NCBI GenBank assembly: GCA_038064015.1
Contig: JBBTUB010000023.1
Location: 369 to 64,368 of the forward strand
Length of the DNA: 64,000 nt
Origin: Patescibacteria group bacterium
GTDB taxonomy: Bacteria; Patescibacteriota; Minisyncoccia; 2-02-FULL-40-12; IGHO2-01-FULL-4-A
Direction of reading: 5' to 3'
In this document: one piece after another, positions 1 through 3,521 of the stretch
Layout of the letters: the number at the start of each line of letters is the position of its first letter
Position numbering within the stretch: the stretch's first letter is position 1
The notes under the pieces: generated by a model
Told to the model about the DNA's origin: nothing
Database searches by the model: none
What the model saw: only the letters and a program-made list of their open reading frames with translations
Made by a program: the position numbers and the translations under genes

Positions 1-425
1 CAGATTTTTCAAAGCATATTTGGCCTGATATCATTTCTGATACGGTCCAAAAAACTCTCAAGGCGCGTTTATTCATCACATTTCCCATCACCCTGAAATC
101 AGGAAAGGTTGCTGGAGTATTTATGTACTCATCGCCGCGCACTGAAATTCCCATGGAGGAACTCAATCTCTTCCAGACGTTTGCTCATCAACTCGGACTT
201 GCGTTCTCCAATGTTTTTGCGTTCGAGCGCCTTATGCAGAAGTACAAAAAAGATAGTGCAACGGATTCGCTCACTAAGCCTGAAACGAATACCCCATCTG
301 TCAAATTTACCCTCCGGATCACACCCAATCAACTCAAGAATCTTGAACGCGTATCGAAAGCGCAACAAAAAAATAAAGCTGACCTGATTCGCGATCTTCT
401 TGACAAGCAAATAATTTCAGAGTAA
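1..425 (+). CDS. 5'-truncated CDS: GAF-like domain C-terminus followed by a ribbon-helix-helix (CopG/Arc-like) tail
   Basis: Frame 3 is open from position 3 to the TAA at 423-425. The ...LRITPNQLKNLERVSKAQQKNKADLIRDLLDK motif is RHH-like. The preceding ...GKVAGVFMYS...ELNLFQTFAHQLGLAF resembles the end of a GAF domain. Confidence 0.45.
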   Translation, partial: DFSKHIWPDIISDTVQKTLKARLFITFPITLKSGKVAGVFMYSSPRTEIPMEELNLFQTFAHQLGLAFSNVFAFERLMQKYKKDSATDSLTKPETNTPSVKFTLRITPNQLKNLERVSKAQQKNKADLIRDLLDKQIISE

Positions 426-489
426 TCTCACGCCGGTCGAGGCACCTCATCTTAACGAGGTGGCGCTAGCGCCACCTTAGCAACATAAC

Positions 490-639
490 ATGAGATATCC
501 TTGGGCGGCTTTTGTCATTCTCGGGATTTGGACGGCAATTACTATTATTGTGGTTGATCGAACAACTACCCAACCGGTGCAGATGTACATGTTCGCTTCT
601 GCGGCCACATTCATCTTGTCGGTCATGGGATTCGTATGA
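490..639 (+). CDS. small 2-TM membrane micro-protein (49 aa), paralog of the 2089..2262 ORF
   Basis: ATG at 490. The product MRYPWAAFVILGIWTAITIIVVDRTTTQPVQMYMFASAATFILSVMGFV is a hydrophobic hairpin. Its stop TGA overlaps the ubiB ATG (ATGA at 636-639). It is about 35% identical, ungapped, to the ORF at 2089. Confidence 0.4.
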   Translation: MRYPWAAFVILGIWTAITIIVVDRTTTQPVQMYMFASAATFILSVMGFV

Positions 640-2108
640 TCCTCCGTATCTTCCTTATTATCGGAGTGATCGCTCGCTGCACAATCATGTATCGAGGGCC
701 TGTGCGGATCCGAATGATGTTCCAGCAATGCGGCGGGGCCATCATCAAGCTCGGTCAGATGCTCGCACTTCGTGCCGATGTGGTGTCGGTGCCGCTTGCG
801 TTTGAGCTCCTCAATCTTCTGGAGCATATGCCCTCAGTGTCGACGGATCAGATTAGGGTAATTATCGCGCATGAGCTCGGCGCTCCGGTTGAGAATCTTT
901 TTCCCTGGTTCGAAGAAATCCCGCTTGCTGTCGCATCGTTTGCGCAGGTACACCGGGCGCAACTTTCTGACGGCAGGATCGTGATCGTCAAAGTCCAAAA
1001 ACCCATGATCGCTCATCAAGTAGCCGAAGACCTTGAGATTCTGGCGATCCTTGCAAAGCTTAGCGACATGTTGATCCCTCGCCTACCCATATCCACAACG
1101 TCGCTCGTCAAAGAATTCAGCGAATGGACGCTTCGCGAGTTGGATTATGAAATGGAGGCGCGAAATGTGGAGTTCTTCCGCCAGCAAAATAACCGTCCGG
1201 AAGTCCATATTCCTGAAGTGATCTGGGACTACACCACCTCGCGAGTCCTCACCGAAGAATATATTGAAGGTTCCAGTATGGCAGAACTCGTCCAGCAACC
1301 ATCTCACCCGACCAAAGCTTTGCTCGCCCAACATCTGATCACCACGAGCATGCGCCAGTATTTCCTCCTCGGATACTTTCATGCCGATCCACATGCCGGC
1401 AATATCCTTGTTGACGACAAGGGCAGGCTAAACTATGTAGACTTTGGAATGGTGGGCTCGTCGGGGCCGGATCATCGAGTCGTTATGGCAAGTTTTATCT
1501 ACCACACGATCAACCGGAATTTTTCCGCGGCAATCAAAGCATTCCTCGCACTTGGCTTTTCGAGGCGTACGAACCACGATTTGCGATATTTTGCCACCGA
1601 TAAAAAATTCTTGGATCGGTTTACAAAAAACATCACGTTCTTCGAACGCGTCCTGACGCAAGAATTCATTAACATTGCAGAGCCATGGTTGGCTGCGATT
1701 GAGGCTCCCGGAGCATCATTCGCCGAAAAAAGCTCCGCAAAGTCATTTCTGACTTTTCTCAACATCGCTAAGCGGCATCGCGTCGTGCTTGATCAAGAAA
1801 TCACGCTGTTTGTGAAGACGCTCGTAGCGGTGGATGCGATCAGCCTCCAGCTTGATCCACACTTCAACCTGATCACGACGCTCAATAATGTTTTTGCTGG
1901 TGAAGAATTCCGATGGTTGCTAGCAGCCCGAAATTTTGAAAATCTTTCGATTGCTACCCTGCCCCTACCGGCAATGCAATTAAAAAATCCCGAGAAAGCT
2001 GTCTTGCTTAAAGACTATTATACAGATTGGCTTGGAGAGCTCTTGAGTACGCAACTTCCTATGTTAACAAAAAATAACCACAATAAATATGAAATACGCT
2101 TCCATTAG
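636..2108 (+). CDS. ubiB: ABC1/UbiB-family atypical protein kinase
   Basis: It carries the KLGQMLALRADVV motif and the LAVASFAQVHRAQLSDGRIVIVKVQKP lysine region, hallmarks of the ABC1/AarF kinase family. The start is supported by an ATGA overlap with the upstream micro-ORF. Confidence 0.8.
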   Translation: MILRIFLIIGVIARCTIMYRGPVRIRMMFQQCGGAIIKLGQMLALRADVVSVPLAFELLNLLEHMPSVSTDQIRVIIAHELGAPVENLFPWFEEIPLAVASFAQVHRAQLSDGRIVIVKVQKPMIAHQVAEDLEILAILAKLSDMLIPRLPISTTSLVKEFSEWTLRELDYEMEARNVEFFRQQNNRPEVHIPEVIWDYTTSRVLTEEYIEGSSMAELVQQPSHPTKALLAQHLITTSMRQYFLLGYFHADPHAGNILVDDKGRLNYVDFGMVGSSGPDHRVVMASFIYHTINRNFSAAIKAFLALGFSRRTNHDLRYFATDKKFLDRFTKNITFFERVLTQEFINIAEPWLAAIEAPGASFAEKSSAKSFLTFLNIAKRHRVVLDQEITLFVKTLVAVDAISLQLDPHFNLITTLNNVFAGEEFRWLLAARNFENLSIATLPLPAMQLKNPEKAVLLKDYYTDWLGELLSTQLPMLTKNNHNKYEIRFH

Positions 2109-2262
2109 TATCACGATCGTTGGTATCTGGATTATTATGACGGTCGCCATTCTTGCGCGCGAGGACGCATCGCCAATAGTGATGATGGTTTTTGCGCTCG
2201 CTAATACCGTCTGGTTGGCGATGCTTGGTTTCCGCGCACCACGGCATCCCGACGCGAAGTAA
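2089..2262 (+). CDS. small 2-TM membrane micro-protein (57 aa), paralog of the 490..639 ORF
   Basis: ATG at 2089 overlaps the last codons of ubiB in another frame. The product is MKYASISITIVGIWIIMTVAILAREDASPIVMMVFALANTVWLAMLGFRAPRHPDAK. It shares the M+Y...GIW...R..P..M.F...T.L..GF register with the 490 ORF. Confidence 0.4.
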   Translation: MKYASISITIVGIWIIMTVAILAREDASPIVMMVFALANTVWLAMLGFRAPRHPDAK

Positions 2263-2267
2263 GATGC

Positions 2268-3521
2268 CTATCGCTTAATCTCGGTAATTCCCATCATCCA
2301 GAGCTTGAGTACATCAGGGATTTTGATGGAGCCATCGGGTTGCTGATAGTTTTCAATGATGGCGGCGATGGTGCGGCCGATGGCGAGGGCCGTAGCGTCG
2401 TTCATGTGGACAAAAGCAGTTTCGCTATCACTTTTACGATACTTAGTACTTAATCGTCGGGCTTGATAATCAGCCATGTAGTCAGCCGTGTGTGTCTCGC
2501 AAAATCTATCTTGCCCTGGCATCCAGGTATTGATATCCACGCCGCGCGCGTTGGGATCGCCGATGTCGGCGGTGCATTTGAGGATGACTTGGTACGGAAG
2601 CCCGAGGCCTTGCAAAAGCTCTTCCTGAATTACAATAAGATTCTTGTGCTCATCTATCGCCTGCTCAGCAGTACTAAAAACCCCCATTTCTACTTTGTGG
2701 AATTCATGAAGGCGGATGATACCTCGCGTGTCTTTGCCTGCCGCTCCAGCCTCTCTTCTCAATGCAGGAGAAAAGGCAACATAGCGAAGCGGCAAGTTTT
2801 TCTCGGGGATGATTTCGTCCATGTGCATCGGCCCGAGCGTATGCTCGGCACTGCCGATCAGATACATATCGTCAGATGGAATATAGTATCGTTCTTCTTT
2901 GGGCTCCAGGCGAGCCATTTTTTGATAGACATCGGGCTTGATAAACATCGGCGGGACAATTGGCACGAAGCCTTTCTTGATGATCACCGAGAGCGCGTAC
3001 TGCACCAACGCGTATTCCATCATCGCCGCTTCGCGCTTGAGATAGGTAAACCGAGCACCTGAGACATTTCCCGCACGCTCGTTGTCGATGATATCCAGCG
3101 TCTCGCCAAGTTCCCAGTGTGGCTTTGGCGTAAAATCAAACGCCGGCTTCTCTCCCCACTCTTTTATTATTTTATTATCCGCTTCACTCGTCCCGATTGG
3201 CGTATCTTCAGTCGGGATATTTGGCACTTTATATAAAAGTTCCTGCAGTTCTTGCTCAACCGTCTTGATCTCGCGATCAAGCTCGGCGGCTTGTTCTTTG
3301 TATTTTTTGCCCTCGGCGATCTGATCCAGAGTCGGTTTGCCCCCTTCGGATGCCTTGGCGATGGCATTTCGAAATGAATTCGCCTGATCCAACTCTCCTT
3401 GCACATGCCTCCGCCGCTCATCGAGCGCAAGAAGTTTATCAACATCAACCGCGACGTTCTTGTTCTTCGCGGCTTGTTTGACGATGTCCGGATTTTGGCG
3501 AATAAACTTGATATCGAGCAT
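2268..3521 (-). CDS. serS: seryl-tRNA synthetase
   Basis: Full-length class II SerRS. It has the N-terminal coiled coil (MLDIKFIRQNPD...) and the catalytic motifs, including RREAGAAGKDTRGIIRLHEFHKVE. Confidence 0.95.
   Translation of the reverse strand: MLDIKFIRQNPDIVKQAAKNKNVAVDVDKLLALDERRRHVQGELDQANSFRNAIAKASEGGKPTLDQIAEGKKYKEQAAELDREIKTVEQELQELLYKVPNIPTEDTPIGTSEADNKIIKEWGEKPAFDFTPKPHWELGETLDIIDNERAGNVSGARFTYLKREAAMMEYALVQYALSVIIKKGFVPIVPPMFIKPDVYQKMARLEPKEERYYIPSDDMYLIGSAEHTLGPMHMDEIIPEKNLPLRYVAFSPALRREAGAAGKDTRGIIRLHEFHKVEMGVFSTAEQAIDEHKNLIVIQEELLQGLGLPYQVILKCTADIGDPNARGVDINTWMPGQDRFCETHTADYMADYQARRLSTKYRKSDSETAFVHMNDATALAIGRTIAAIIENYQQPDGSIKIPDVLKLWMMGITEIKR

Follow-up and report, generated by a model that had tools for sequence, protein, structure and literature searches.

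Proteins of the UbiB/ABC1/COQ8 family are ancient and widespread, their function is still debated, and two of the human representatives, COQ8A and COQ8B, are disease genes. The current lipid-extraction model of these proteins hinges on how they engage the membrane: COQ8 is membrane-associated and extracts polyprenyl lipid intermediates using ATP, and in its full-length form it carries two hydrophobic N-terminal helices (PMC13418538). The ABC1-type gene in the window, i.e., the whole 64-kb stretch of patescibacterial DNA analyzed here, is bracketed by two open reading frames for hydrophobic peptides of some 50 residues, which raises the question whether these micro-proteins are genuine gene products and, if so, whether they have anything to do with the enzyme encoded between them.

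The locus is compact, and all three genes lie on the forward strand. The upstream micro-protein (UP, encoded by ORF1 at positions 490–639) is a 49-aa two-transmembrane (TM) hairpin of the form MRYPW...GIW...GFV, and the downstream micro-protein (DOWN, ORF2 at 2089–2262) is a 57-aa two-TM hairpin of the form MKYAS...GIW...GFRAPRHPDAK. Between them, at 636–2108, lies the gene for an ABC1/UbiB-family atypical kinase-like ATPase of 490 aa without a C-terminal membrane hairpin, here called ubiB. Both small ORFs are present just as the initial annotation of this DNA had described them, but its remark that they are unannotated does not hold for the GenBank record, which lists them as AAB483_02510 and AAB483_02520, each as a “hypothetical protein”. 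The downstream copy does begin within the 3′ end of ubiB, as had been claimed, with an overlap of 20 nt up to the end of the ubiB stop codon at 2108. The proposed coupling of ORF1 and ubiB through an ATGA overlap (636–639, forward strand; ubiB ATG at 636–638, ORF1 TGA at 637–639) is real in the window and in the loci L059, L063, and L094, but it is not general: the overlap is confined to the window's own clade and L094, while other clades have gaps of 0–33 nt. In GenBank the ubiB start is placed 26 codons further downstream (464 aa), which would abolish the overlap; the ATGA start is the better call because L059 and L063 share the 26 additional N-terminal residues in conserved form and because L063 offers no alternative start codon. 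On the 3′ side, a convergent seryl-tRNA synthetase gene (2268–3521, reverse strand; Seryl_tRNA_N and tRNA-synt_2b according to precomputed Pfam matches in the identical locus L066) ends 5 nt past ORF2 and sets the limit of the operon, inside which a consensus scan found no convincing promoter or terminator. The region is best explained as a three-gene operon, consisting of the UP micro-protein, the ABC1/UbiB-type ATPase, and the DOWN micro-protein, that is conserved across Patescibacteria.

The central protein scores 224 bits (E=2e-66) with the Pfam family ABC1 (PF03109), for which the cut-off is 22.9. In an alignment of 44 sequences the catalytic motifs are invariant (KxGQ, the A-rich loop, the beta-3 Lys, HxDxHxxN, and DFG), with K38, Q41, A100, S101, Q104, K119, D251, H253, N256, D269, and G271 as the invariant residues. 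Its AlphaFold2 model (pLDDT 90.3) has the COQ8A entries 7udq, 4ped, and 5i35 as top Foldseek matches (E about 5e-17, target-normalised TM-score 0.73–0.80), and by sequence its matches in the PDB are Rv3197 (the best, E=5.6e-27) and COQ8A/B. The scores against the UbiB equivalog models TIGR01982 and PRK04750 are 281 versus a cut-off of 487.55 and 190.8 versus 667, respectively, so the protein is a member of the family and not a demonstrated UbiB orthologue. No hydrophobic segment is found in its last 75 residues, i.e., C-terminal TM domains are absent. The seven closest ABC1 homologues likewise have no C-terminal hydrophobic segment, and of the next 113 homologues 103 have at least one, most of them two. 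The short-form proteins flanked by micro-proteins are monophyletic (bootstrap 93/100) and nested among the long forms, and on this phylogeny the flanked clade has lost the two C-terminal TM helices that are typical of its nearest relatives.

UP and DOWN align without gaps over their full length at about 35% identity, as had been noted before (17/48 identical, 29/48 positives; BLASTP E=6e-10). Their Smith-Waterman score of 91 was reached in none of 10,000 shuffles, the maxima being 55 among 5000 global shuffles and 65 among 5000 that kept the TM1/loop/TM2 layout, and the suspected paralogy is thus borne out by both BLASTP and the shuffle tests. At residue 2, R is found in 12 of 14 UP copies whereas 13 of 14 DOWN copies have K, and the UP and DOWN proteins of the same locus are never sister sequences; judged from these comparisons, the two are ancient paralogues. 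AlphaFold2 modelled the ORF2 product as a helical hairpin (helices 2–23 and 29–47, pLDDT 88), in agreement with the hairpin peptides proposed by the initial annotation, and each micro-protein is predicted to fold as a two-helix membrane hairpin. In nearly all copies, the termini have a net charge of +1 to +3 and the loop one of 0 to −3, and the most conserved columns of the family alignment are concentrated at both termini.

Both micro-proteins match the family HMM (UP E=2e-21, DOWN E=2e-23). Clustering of the family leaves 34 representatives at the 50% identity level and 78 clusters at the 90% level, with lengths of 49–93 aa; its 85- and 93-aa entries, inspected as candidate fusions, contain an internal MRY start and result from over-extended gene calls, and no fused form occurs among the 34 representatives and 78 clusters. 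All sources with a named lineage are Patescibacteria, namely Parcubacteria, Sung-, Vogel-, Terry-, and Levybacteria. The micro-proteins had no Pfam match at E≤1 and only chance-level matches in NCBIfam, and neither the best PDB sequence match (E=0.098) nor the best Foldseek match (E=8.9) was significant. They define an undescribed protein family that is specific to Patescibacteria and for which the trio is a compact marker. A metagenome scan keyed solely on the N-terminus of the small proteins yielded 16 loci, and nine more loci were reached via family members; 16 distinct complete loci have the order small-ABC1-small. Conservation and linkage had been named beforehand as the point on which the initial annotation could fail, and the small ORFs proved to be conserved beside ABC1 in all 16 scanned loci as well as in the nine further ones: a family member adjoins the ABC1 gene on the same strand in 25/25 recovered loci. 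Intergenic distances within the trio range from −20 to +33 nt, the exception being 80 nt in L090, a value that depends on the start codon chosen. The trio is retained between ABC1 proteins of only 27–33% identity, and the 64-kb window holds just these two family copies. Beyond the trio, the gene neighbors are unrelated housekeeping genes that differ from locus to locus; no wider conserved neighborhood that might hint at a function was found among the loci, with Wzy_C recurring in three of them only. Family ORFs were absent from 60 control ABC1 loci, of which two were long-form Patescibacteria and 58 came from other phyla, the latter being distant relatives, mostly Actinoplanes and other actinobacteria, from a contig scan with the ABC1 protein.

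Short ORFs invite skepticism, and these lack Shine-Dalgarno sequences and, in L059, L085, and L093, escaped the gene callers or were assigned to the wrong strand, as might be expected of chance frames or of short coupling ORFs whose peptide is irrelevant. This explanation is already refuted and has virtually no standing left. The UP orthologues in L059 and L063 gave pN 0.12–0.19 versus pS 0.65–0.76, and four diverged DOWN orthologues gave pN 0.10–0.24 versus pS 0.58–0.89, i.e., synonymous sites approach saturation with little change in the amino acids; the alignment of 57 family sequences is almost gapless with M1, W14, and G47 invariant; and the AlphaFold2 hairpin is confident. Both small ORFs are even better conserved than the ABC1 enzyme (pN 0.30–0.41), and their substitution pattern is that of translated-type genes on which strong purifying selection acts. 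Small hydrophobic peptides resembling type I toxins were also considered and were ruled out by the fixed same-strand ABC1 neighbor. Another reading gives the micro-proteins an independent role in the membrane, with co-transcription as their only tie to the ABC1 gene. In one lineage (L060–62, L069, and L070), an IS element deleted UP and most of the ABC1 gene and left DOWN intact, which fits an ATPase-independent function of DOWN or simply a recent event. However, no family member lies apart from ABC1 in any of the 25 loci despite fully reshuffled neighbors, the trio persists across strongly diverged ABC1 proteins, and the family is absent at long-form and soluble ABC1 loci, and we therefore consider an independent function very improbable.

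The conserved flanking of an anchorless ABC1 protein in every Patescibacteria locus examined suggests that the micro-proteins are probably its detached membrane subunits, a partnership that we infer from gene linkage. We consider it reasonably likely that the two hairpins together anchor the cytoplasmic ATPase to the membrane, or act as its adaptor there, in place of the lost covalent hairpin. Each hairpin would be embedded in the membrane with its N- and C-terminus on the cytoplasmic side, and UP and DOWN would pair as a four-helix heterodimer that docks the otherwise soluble ATPase on the membrane, with the conserved cytoplasmic ends M-K/R-Y-P-W and G-F-R as the presumed docking surface. They would thereby assume the anchoring, and perhaps the lipid-access, role of the lost hairpin, and the ATPase could then act on a membrane lipid in the way that COQ8 extracts polyprenyl intermediates. 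Besides the intact DOWN copy left after the IS event and the absence of detectable homology between the hairpins and the long-form C-terminal hairpin, two points count against the anchor model. E. coli UbiB, which has predicted C-terminal TM domains, is still functional in vivo without them (bioRxiv 10.64898/2026.03.05.709815), so anchoring may not be essential to the family, and the N-terminal hydrophobic helix found in some of the flanked ABC1 proteins could itself contribute membrane contact.

The proposed arrangement resembles several known systems in part. In long-form bacterial UbiB/ABC1 proteins, e.g., in the last 47 residues of E. coli UbiB, the kinase-like domain is likewise followed on its 3′ side by a two-helix hairpin, in which a basic residue comes after the second helix and whose ends both lie on the same side as the catalytic domain, whereas here the hairpin is a separate polypeptide that is encoded twice, by paralogues flanking the enzyme gene, and has no detectable sequence homology with the long-form hairpin. 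COQ8A and COQ8B (ADCK3/4), which are mitochondrial UbiB-family ATPases, have the fold and the catalytic motifs in common with the ABC1 protein of the window, but COQ8 has hydrophobic N-terminal helices of its own as a tether and separate micro-protein subunits have not been described for it. The substrate must differ as well: to our knowledge, quinones are generally absent from Patescibacteria, as is much of lipid synthesis, so that the substrate would be another lipid. The soluble mycobacterial proteins Rv3197/MABP-1 and MSMEG_1954 also have an ABC1 fold without a covalent TM domain, but the 58 control loci from other phyla, most of which encode actinobacterial ABC1 proteins without a hydrophobic segment, lack flanking hairpin ORFs. 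The SdhC/SdhD and FrdC/FrdD anchors as well as CydX, KdpF, and AcrZ are short membrane polypeptides that bind an enzyme from their own operon, and Sdh and Frd each have two related anchor subunits per soluble catalytic part. We know of none among these that partners a UbiB-family protein, and the likeness is one of logic only, with no sequence or fold relationship to the micro-proteins.

Two further explanations were considered. According to the one, which concerns origin only and is compatible with an anchor role, an ancestral long-form ABC1 protein gave rise to DOWN by detachment of its C-terminal hairpin, and UP is a later duplicate of DOWN. DOWN sits exactly at the hairpin-coding position of the long forms, often overlapping the ABC1 stop codon, it agrees with their hairpin in its two-helix topology and in the basic residue that follows TM2, and the short-form clade is nested within the long forms. 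Against such a gene fission, a profile-profile comparison with the long-form hairpin (103 sequences) scored 14.0, an earlier hhalign comparison gave 43% probability at 4% identity, and there is no intermediate or fused form in the family. Homology to the lost hairpin was rejected as not demonstrable because the score is hardly above the 12.2 of a reversed decoy, and fission is a possible but doubtful origin. According to the other explanation, the micro-proteins are not anchors but regulators, i.e., small membrane modulators that switch the ATPase on or off as MgrB does with PhoQ, or substrates that it phosphorylates at their cytoplasmic G-F-R-S/T-P tails. Strict linkage and strong conservation would suit a regulatory partner equally well, alignment position 52 is S or T in 34/57 sequences, often with P next, and kinase activity is reported for some plant ABC1 proteins (PMC8956952). 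The S/T-P motif is not universal, however, as the UP protein of the window ends at GFV, and the loss of the covalent hairpin together with the gain of micro-proteins is directly explained by anchoring and not by regulation. The retention of two distinct paralogues throughout the history of the clade also suggests a structural heterodimer, and a regulator or substrate role appears unlikely to us.

Extending the anchor model, the trio could be a Patescibacteria-specific lipid machine in which the ATPase and a heterodimeric membrane portal extract, insert, or hand over a non-quinone lipid, such as undecaprenyl phosphate or host-scavenged lipids. We hold this to be decidedly unlikely at present, but if true, the UbiB family would gain a core function that does not depend on quinones and, for the first time, dedicated subunits in the membrane. 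The presence of the trio in organisms generally without quinones in itself points to a non-quinone role for the family. The initial annotation knew of no dedicated micro-protein partners of UbiB, and none were found in the literature that we searched on UbiB in combination with Patescibacteria/CPR or with micro-/small proteins, nor was a split hairpin-subunit arrangement around UbiB/ABC1 found described there. A clade with its membrane part split into two conserved micro-proteins would be a natural separation of the anchor from the engine, and the trio can be directly tested as a three-protein complex. It is also a clear case of functional genes below 60 aa that are overlooked or placed on the wrong strand by gene callers.

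The operon is preceded by the 3′ part of another gene (1–425, forward strand), for which the fragment in the window gave a weak RHH_1 match. Its full-length orthologues encode proteins of 245–250 aa that combine a GAF-like domain with a ribbon-helix-helix at the C-terminus (L059:2067-2801 and L085:1918-2667; GAF_2 1e-4 and 8e-5, RHH_1 5e-4 and 2e-3, respectively, all slightly below the Pfam cut-offs). The product is a possible regulator, and the gene is tied to the operon only in the window's clade. Overlapping the stop codon of this gene is a promoter-like element (400–428, forward strand; TTGACA at 400–405, a 17-nt spacer, and TAATCT at 423–428), which was missed by the consensus scan because its −10 hexamer matches at 3/6 positions only. 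CTTGACA is unchanged in 5/5 aligned upstream regions (the window, L059, L063, and two in L085), and its flanks are variable. The leader itself had no match in Rfam and contains a palindrome or hairpin (457–478, forward strand) of the type AGGTGGCGC-TAGC-GCGCCACCT, located 12 nt 5′ of the ORF1 ATG. This palindrome occurs once in the 64-kb window versus 0 expected occurrences and has a predicted fold of −23.4 kcal/mol (z=−2.9), and its core GGTGGC-N6-GCCACC is identical in 5/5 aligned leaders.

An ABC1/UbiB-family ATPase gene (ABC1; window 636-2108, forward strand, 490 aa; Pfam PF03109, E=2e-66) is bracketed on the same strand by two small ORFs, one upstream (UP, 490-639, 49 aa) and one downstream (DOWN, 2089-2262, 57 aa), as the initial annotation had claimed. 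The tight coupling described there is likewise present, with an ATGA junction between UP and ABC1 at 636-639 and a DOWN start codon inside the end of ABC1 that gives a 20-nt overlap (2089-2108). Both small ORFs had been taken as unannotated, but GenBank lists them as hypothetical proteins (AAB483_02510 and AAB483_02520, "Patescibacteria group bacterium"). For ABC1, GenBank uses codon 27 as the start, 26 codons later (464 aa), which leaves out positions 636-713. Since these 26 residues are conserved among orthologues and include a conserved helix (residues 2-18, pLDDT about 96 in the AlphaFold2 model), and since the orthologue on contig L063 has no alternative start codon (L labels denote other contigs or loci compared with the window), the ATG overlapping the UP stop codon is the better call.

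Hydrophobic peptides can resemble each other through composition alone, and the proposed paralogy of the two micro-proteins (gapless, about 35% identity) was therefore set against shuffle controls. UP and DOWN align end to end without gaps (identities 17/48, positives 29/48; BLASTP E=6e-10), and their Smith-Waterman score of 91 exceeds the maxima of both 5000 global shuffles (55) and 5000 shuffles preserving the helix-loop-helix arrangement (65), so that the claim stands. UP and DOWN copies from the same locus share 33–45% identity and are never sister sequences in the tree, and residue 2 is R in 12/14 UP copies and K in 13/14 DOWN copies; the duplication thus occurred before the sampled lineages diverged and both paralogues have persisted since, the pattern expected of a heteromer.

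HMMER, run in full against 1.84 billion representatives, recovered 34 family members, all of 49–70 aa, each matched end to end and none embedded in a larger protein. Searching again with a 46-sequence profile gave 78 clusters at 90% identity (49–93 aa), the two longest being over-extended gene calls. All lineage-named sources are Patescibacteria (Parcubacteria, Sungbacteria, Vogelbacteria, Terrybacteria, and Levybacteria). The family alignment is nearly gap-free, with M1, W14, and G47 invariant and K/R2, Y3, W5, I10, I13, T40, L43, F48, and R49 strongly conserved (numbering of the first sequence). No match was found in Pfam, NCBIfam, PDB sequences, or PDB folds, and the 64-kb window contains exactly the two members that flank ABC1.

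Both small ORFs are real genes. Orthologues of DOWN, obtained by profile search, lie on diverged contigs (64–74% nucleotide identity to the window), and direct reading of these contigs revealed UP orthologues that gene callers had missed or replaced by an opposite-strand ORF. Nonsynonymous changes among the micro-protein orthologues are few (pN 0.10–0.24) while synonymous sites are near saturation (pS 0.58–0.89), and ABC1 itself, with pN 0.30–0.41, is less conserved than the micro-proteins flanking it. An explanation as chance ORFs is refuted. Automatic calls of 46–53 aa on the reverse strand lie opposite the conserved forward-strand micro-protein in L059 (2874-3014), L085 (2740-2886), and L093 (2234-2395); hence, public protein sets conceal part of the family or give it on the wrong strand.

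AlphaFold2, run on a 74-sequence family alignment, returned the helical hairpin that had been read from the sequence (helices 2-23 and 29-47, mean pLDDT 88). The net charge is +1 to +3 at the termini in nearly all copies and 0 to -3 in the loop. By the positive-inside rule used for membrane topology, both ends of the hairpin would be cytoplasmic, and the best-conserved residues would then adjoin one another on the cytoplasmic face. DOWN copies of the window clade (window 2233-2259; L059, L060, L063, L065, and L085) also end in a conserved polar tail (R-A/S-x-R/K-H-P-D/E) that UP copies and other clades lack.

To avoid circularity, metagenomes were scanned with a pattern covering only the small-protein N-terminus; an ABC1 homologue was adjacent at 16/16 loci. 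Nine more loci found via family members, a set that takes in a Levybacteria genome and both of the most divergent members, also adjoin ABC1, and the conservation and linkage that the initial annotation had left to be checked are thereby borne out. Complete UP-ABC1-DOWN trios on one strand occur at 16 distinct loci (window, L059, L063, L085, L071, L072/73, L074/76, L075, L077, L081, L082/83, L089, L090, L091/92, L093, and L094), and incomplete contigs agree with this order. Intergenic gaps range from -20 to +33 nt, except in L090 (80 nt, depending on start codon choice). ABC1 proteins at the other trio loci are 27–55% identical to that of the window, and outside the trio the neighbours vary by locus and are unrelated housekeeping genes (SMC, TruB, ThrRS, GyrB, DnaE, and malic enzyme).

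The flanked ABC1 proteins are short (448–523 aa) with a polar C-terminal end, and none of the seven closest database homologues has a hydrophobic segment within its last 75 residues. The next 113 homologues, typically 536–594 aa, have at least one C-terminal hydrophobic segment in 103 cases and two in most; E. coli UbiB is predicted to have the same C-terminal membrane arrangement as these long forms (bioRxiv 10.64898/2026.03.05.709815). Neighbour-joining places the flanked short forms in a single clade (bootstrap 93/100) that is nested among long forms. Family members are absent at 58 control ABC1 loci from other phyla and at two loci of a long-form patescibacterial ABC1 gene, so that loss of the covalent hairpin coincides with the presence of two free ones. 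The KxGQ motif, A-rich loop, beta-3 Lys, HxDxHxxN motif, and DFG motif are invariant, and the AlphaFold2 model (pLDDT 90.3) best matches COQ8A, MSMEG_1954, and Rv3197. Because the window protein scores under the NCBIfam UbiB equivalog cut-offs, it is filed as an ABC1/UbiB-family member, not as UbiB of the ubiquinone pathway.

The UP and DOWN hairpins probably assemble into a four-helix membrane module that would anchor or adapt the cytoplasmic ATPase at the membrane, through a contact that we infer, and so stand in for the lost covalent hairpin. Linkage, complementary distribution, topology, and conservation are the demonstrated parts of this picture. By analogy with COQ8, for which ATP-gated extraction of polyprenyl intermediates is described and hydrophobic N-terminal helices are noted in the full-length protein (PMC13418538), the enzyme activity is likely lipid handling at the membrane. 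Against anchoring, E. coli UbiB is functional without its TM domains (bioRxiv 10.64898/2026.03.05.709815), and in one lineage an IS630-like element (HTH and DDE_3 transposase ORFs; L060 3464-5198, and likewise in L061, L062, L069, and L070) removed UP together with ABC1 except for its final ~90 codons, leaving DOWN intact, with the same allele in assemblies from several samples. That the micro-proteins are instead regulators or substrates of ABC1 seems unlikely, and that they function independently and are merely co-transcribed with it is very improbable.

As to origin, DOWN is encoded exactly where long forms have their hairpin, which suggests gene fission; however, its profile-profile score against the 103 long-form hairpins (14.0) is no better than that of a reversed decoy (12.2), and descent from the long-form hairpin is thus not demonstrable. 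The ABC1/UbiB enzyme family is already known, as is the principle of small anchor subunits encoded in an operon. The novelty lies in the family of micro-proteins and in the obligate association of its members with an ABC1 clade that lacks the hairpin; a full-text literature search for small-protein operon partners of UbiB, or for UbiB in Patescibacteria/Candidate Phyla Radiation, found nothing relevant, in line with the initial annotation.

A promoter-like CTTGACA-17 nt-TAATCT and, behind it, a leader with a palindrome are conserved (window 400-478; L059 2780-2858; L063 994-1075; L085 2730-2815 and 4830-4915), the second copy of this cassette in L085 preceding an unrelated gene. The palindrome, an invariant GGTGGC-N6-GCCACC just upstream of UP, has no Rfam match and no covariation, and may serve as an operator or form an RNA hairpin common to a regulon. 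Upstream of the trio, in the window clade only, lies a gene for a 245–250-aa protein (window 1-425, cut; L059 2067-2804; L063 276-1013; L085 1918-2670) that combines a GAF-like domain with a ribbon-helix-helix at its C terminus (Pfam scores just under cut-offs); it is a candidate regulator, and the leader palindrome might be its binding site. The other clades have a perfect TATAAT 6–9 nt ahead of the UP start codon and no Shine-Dalgarno sequence (L071 ~190-206, L072/73 ~2240-2258, L074 ~2310-2325, and L090 ~2455-2474; also L077, L078, L081, L082, and L083), a placement that suggests leaderless trio transcripts. Three separate lineages (L085 431-1921, L089 1-1989, and L091 1-1245) have a gene for Wzy_C (O-antigen ligase/polymerase-like) directly upstream of the trio, with SecA directly downstream in L089 and L091. 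The Wzy_C family acts on undecaprenyl-linked substrates, and its proximity could be due to chance or give a clue to the lipid concerned.
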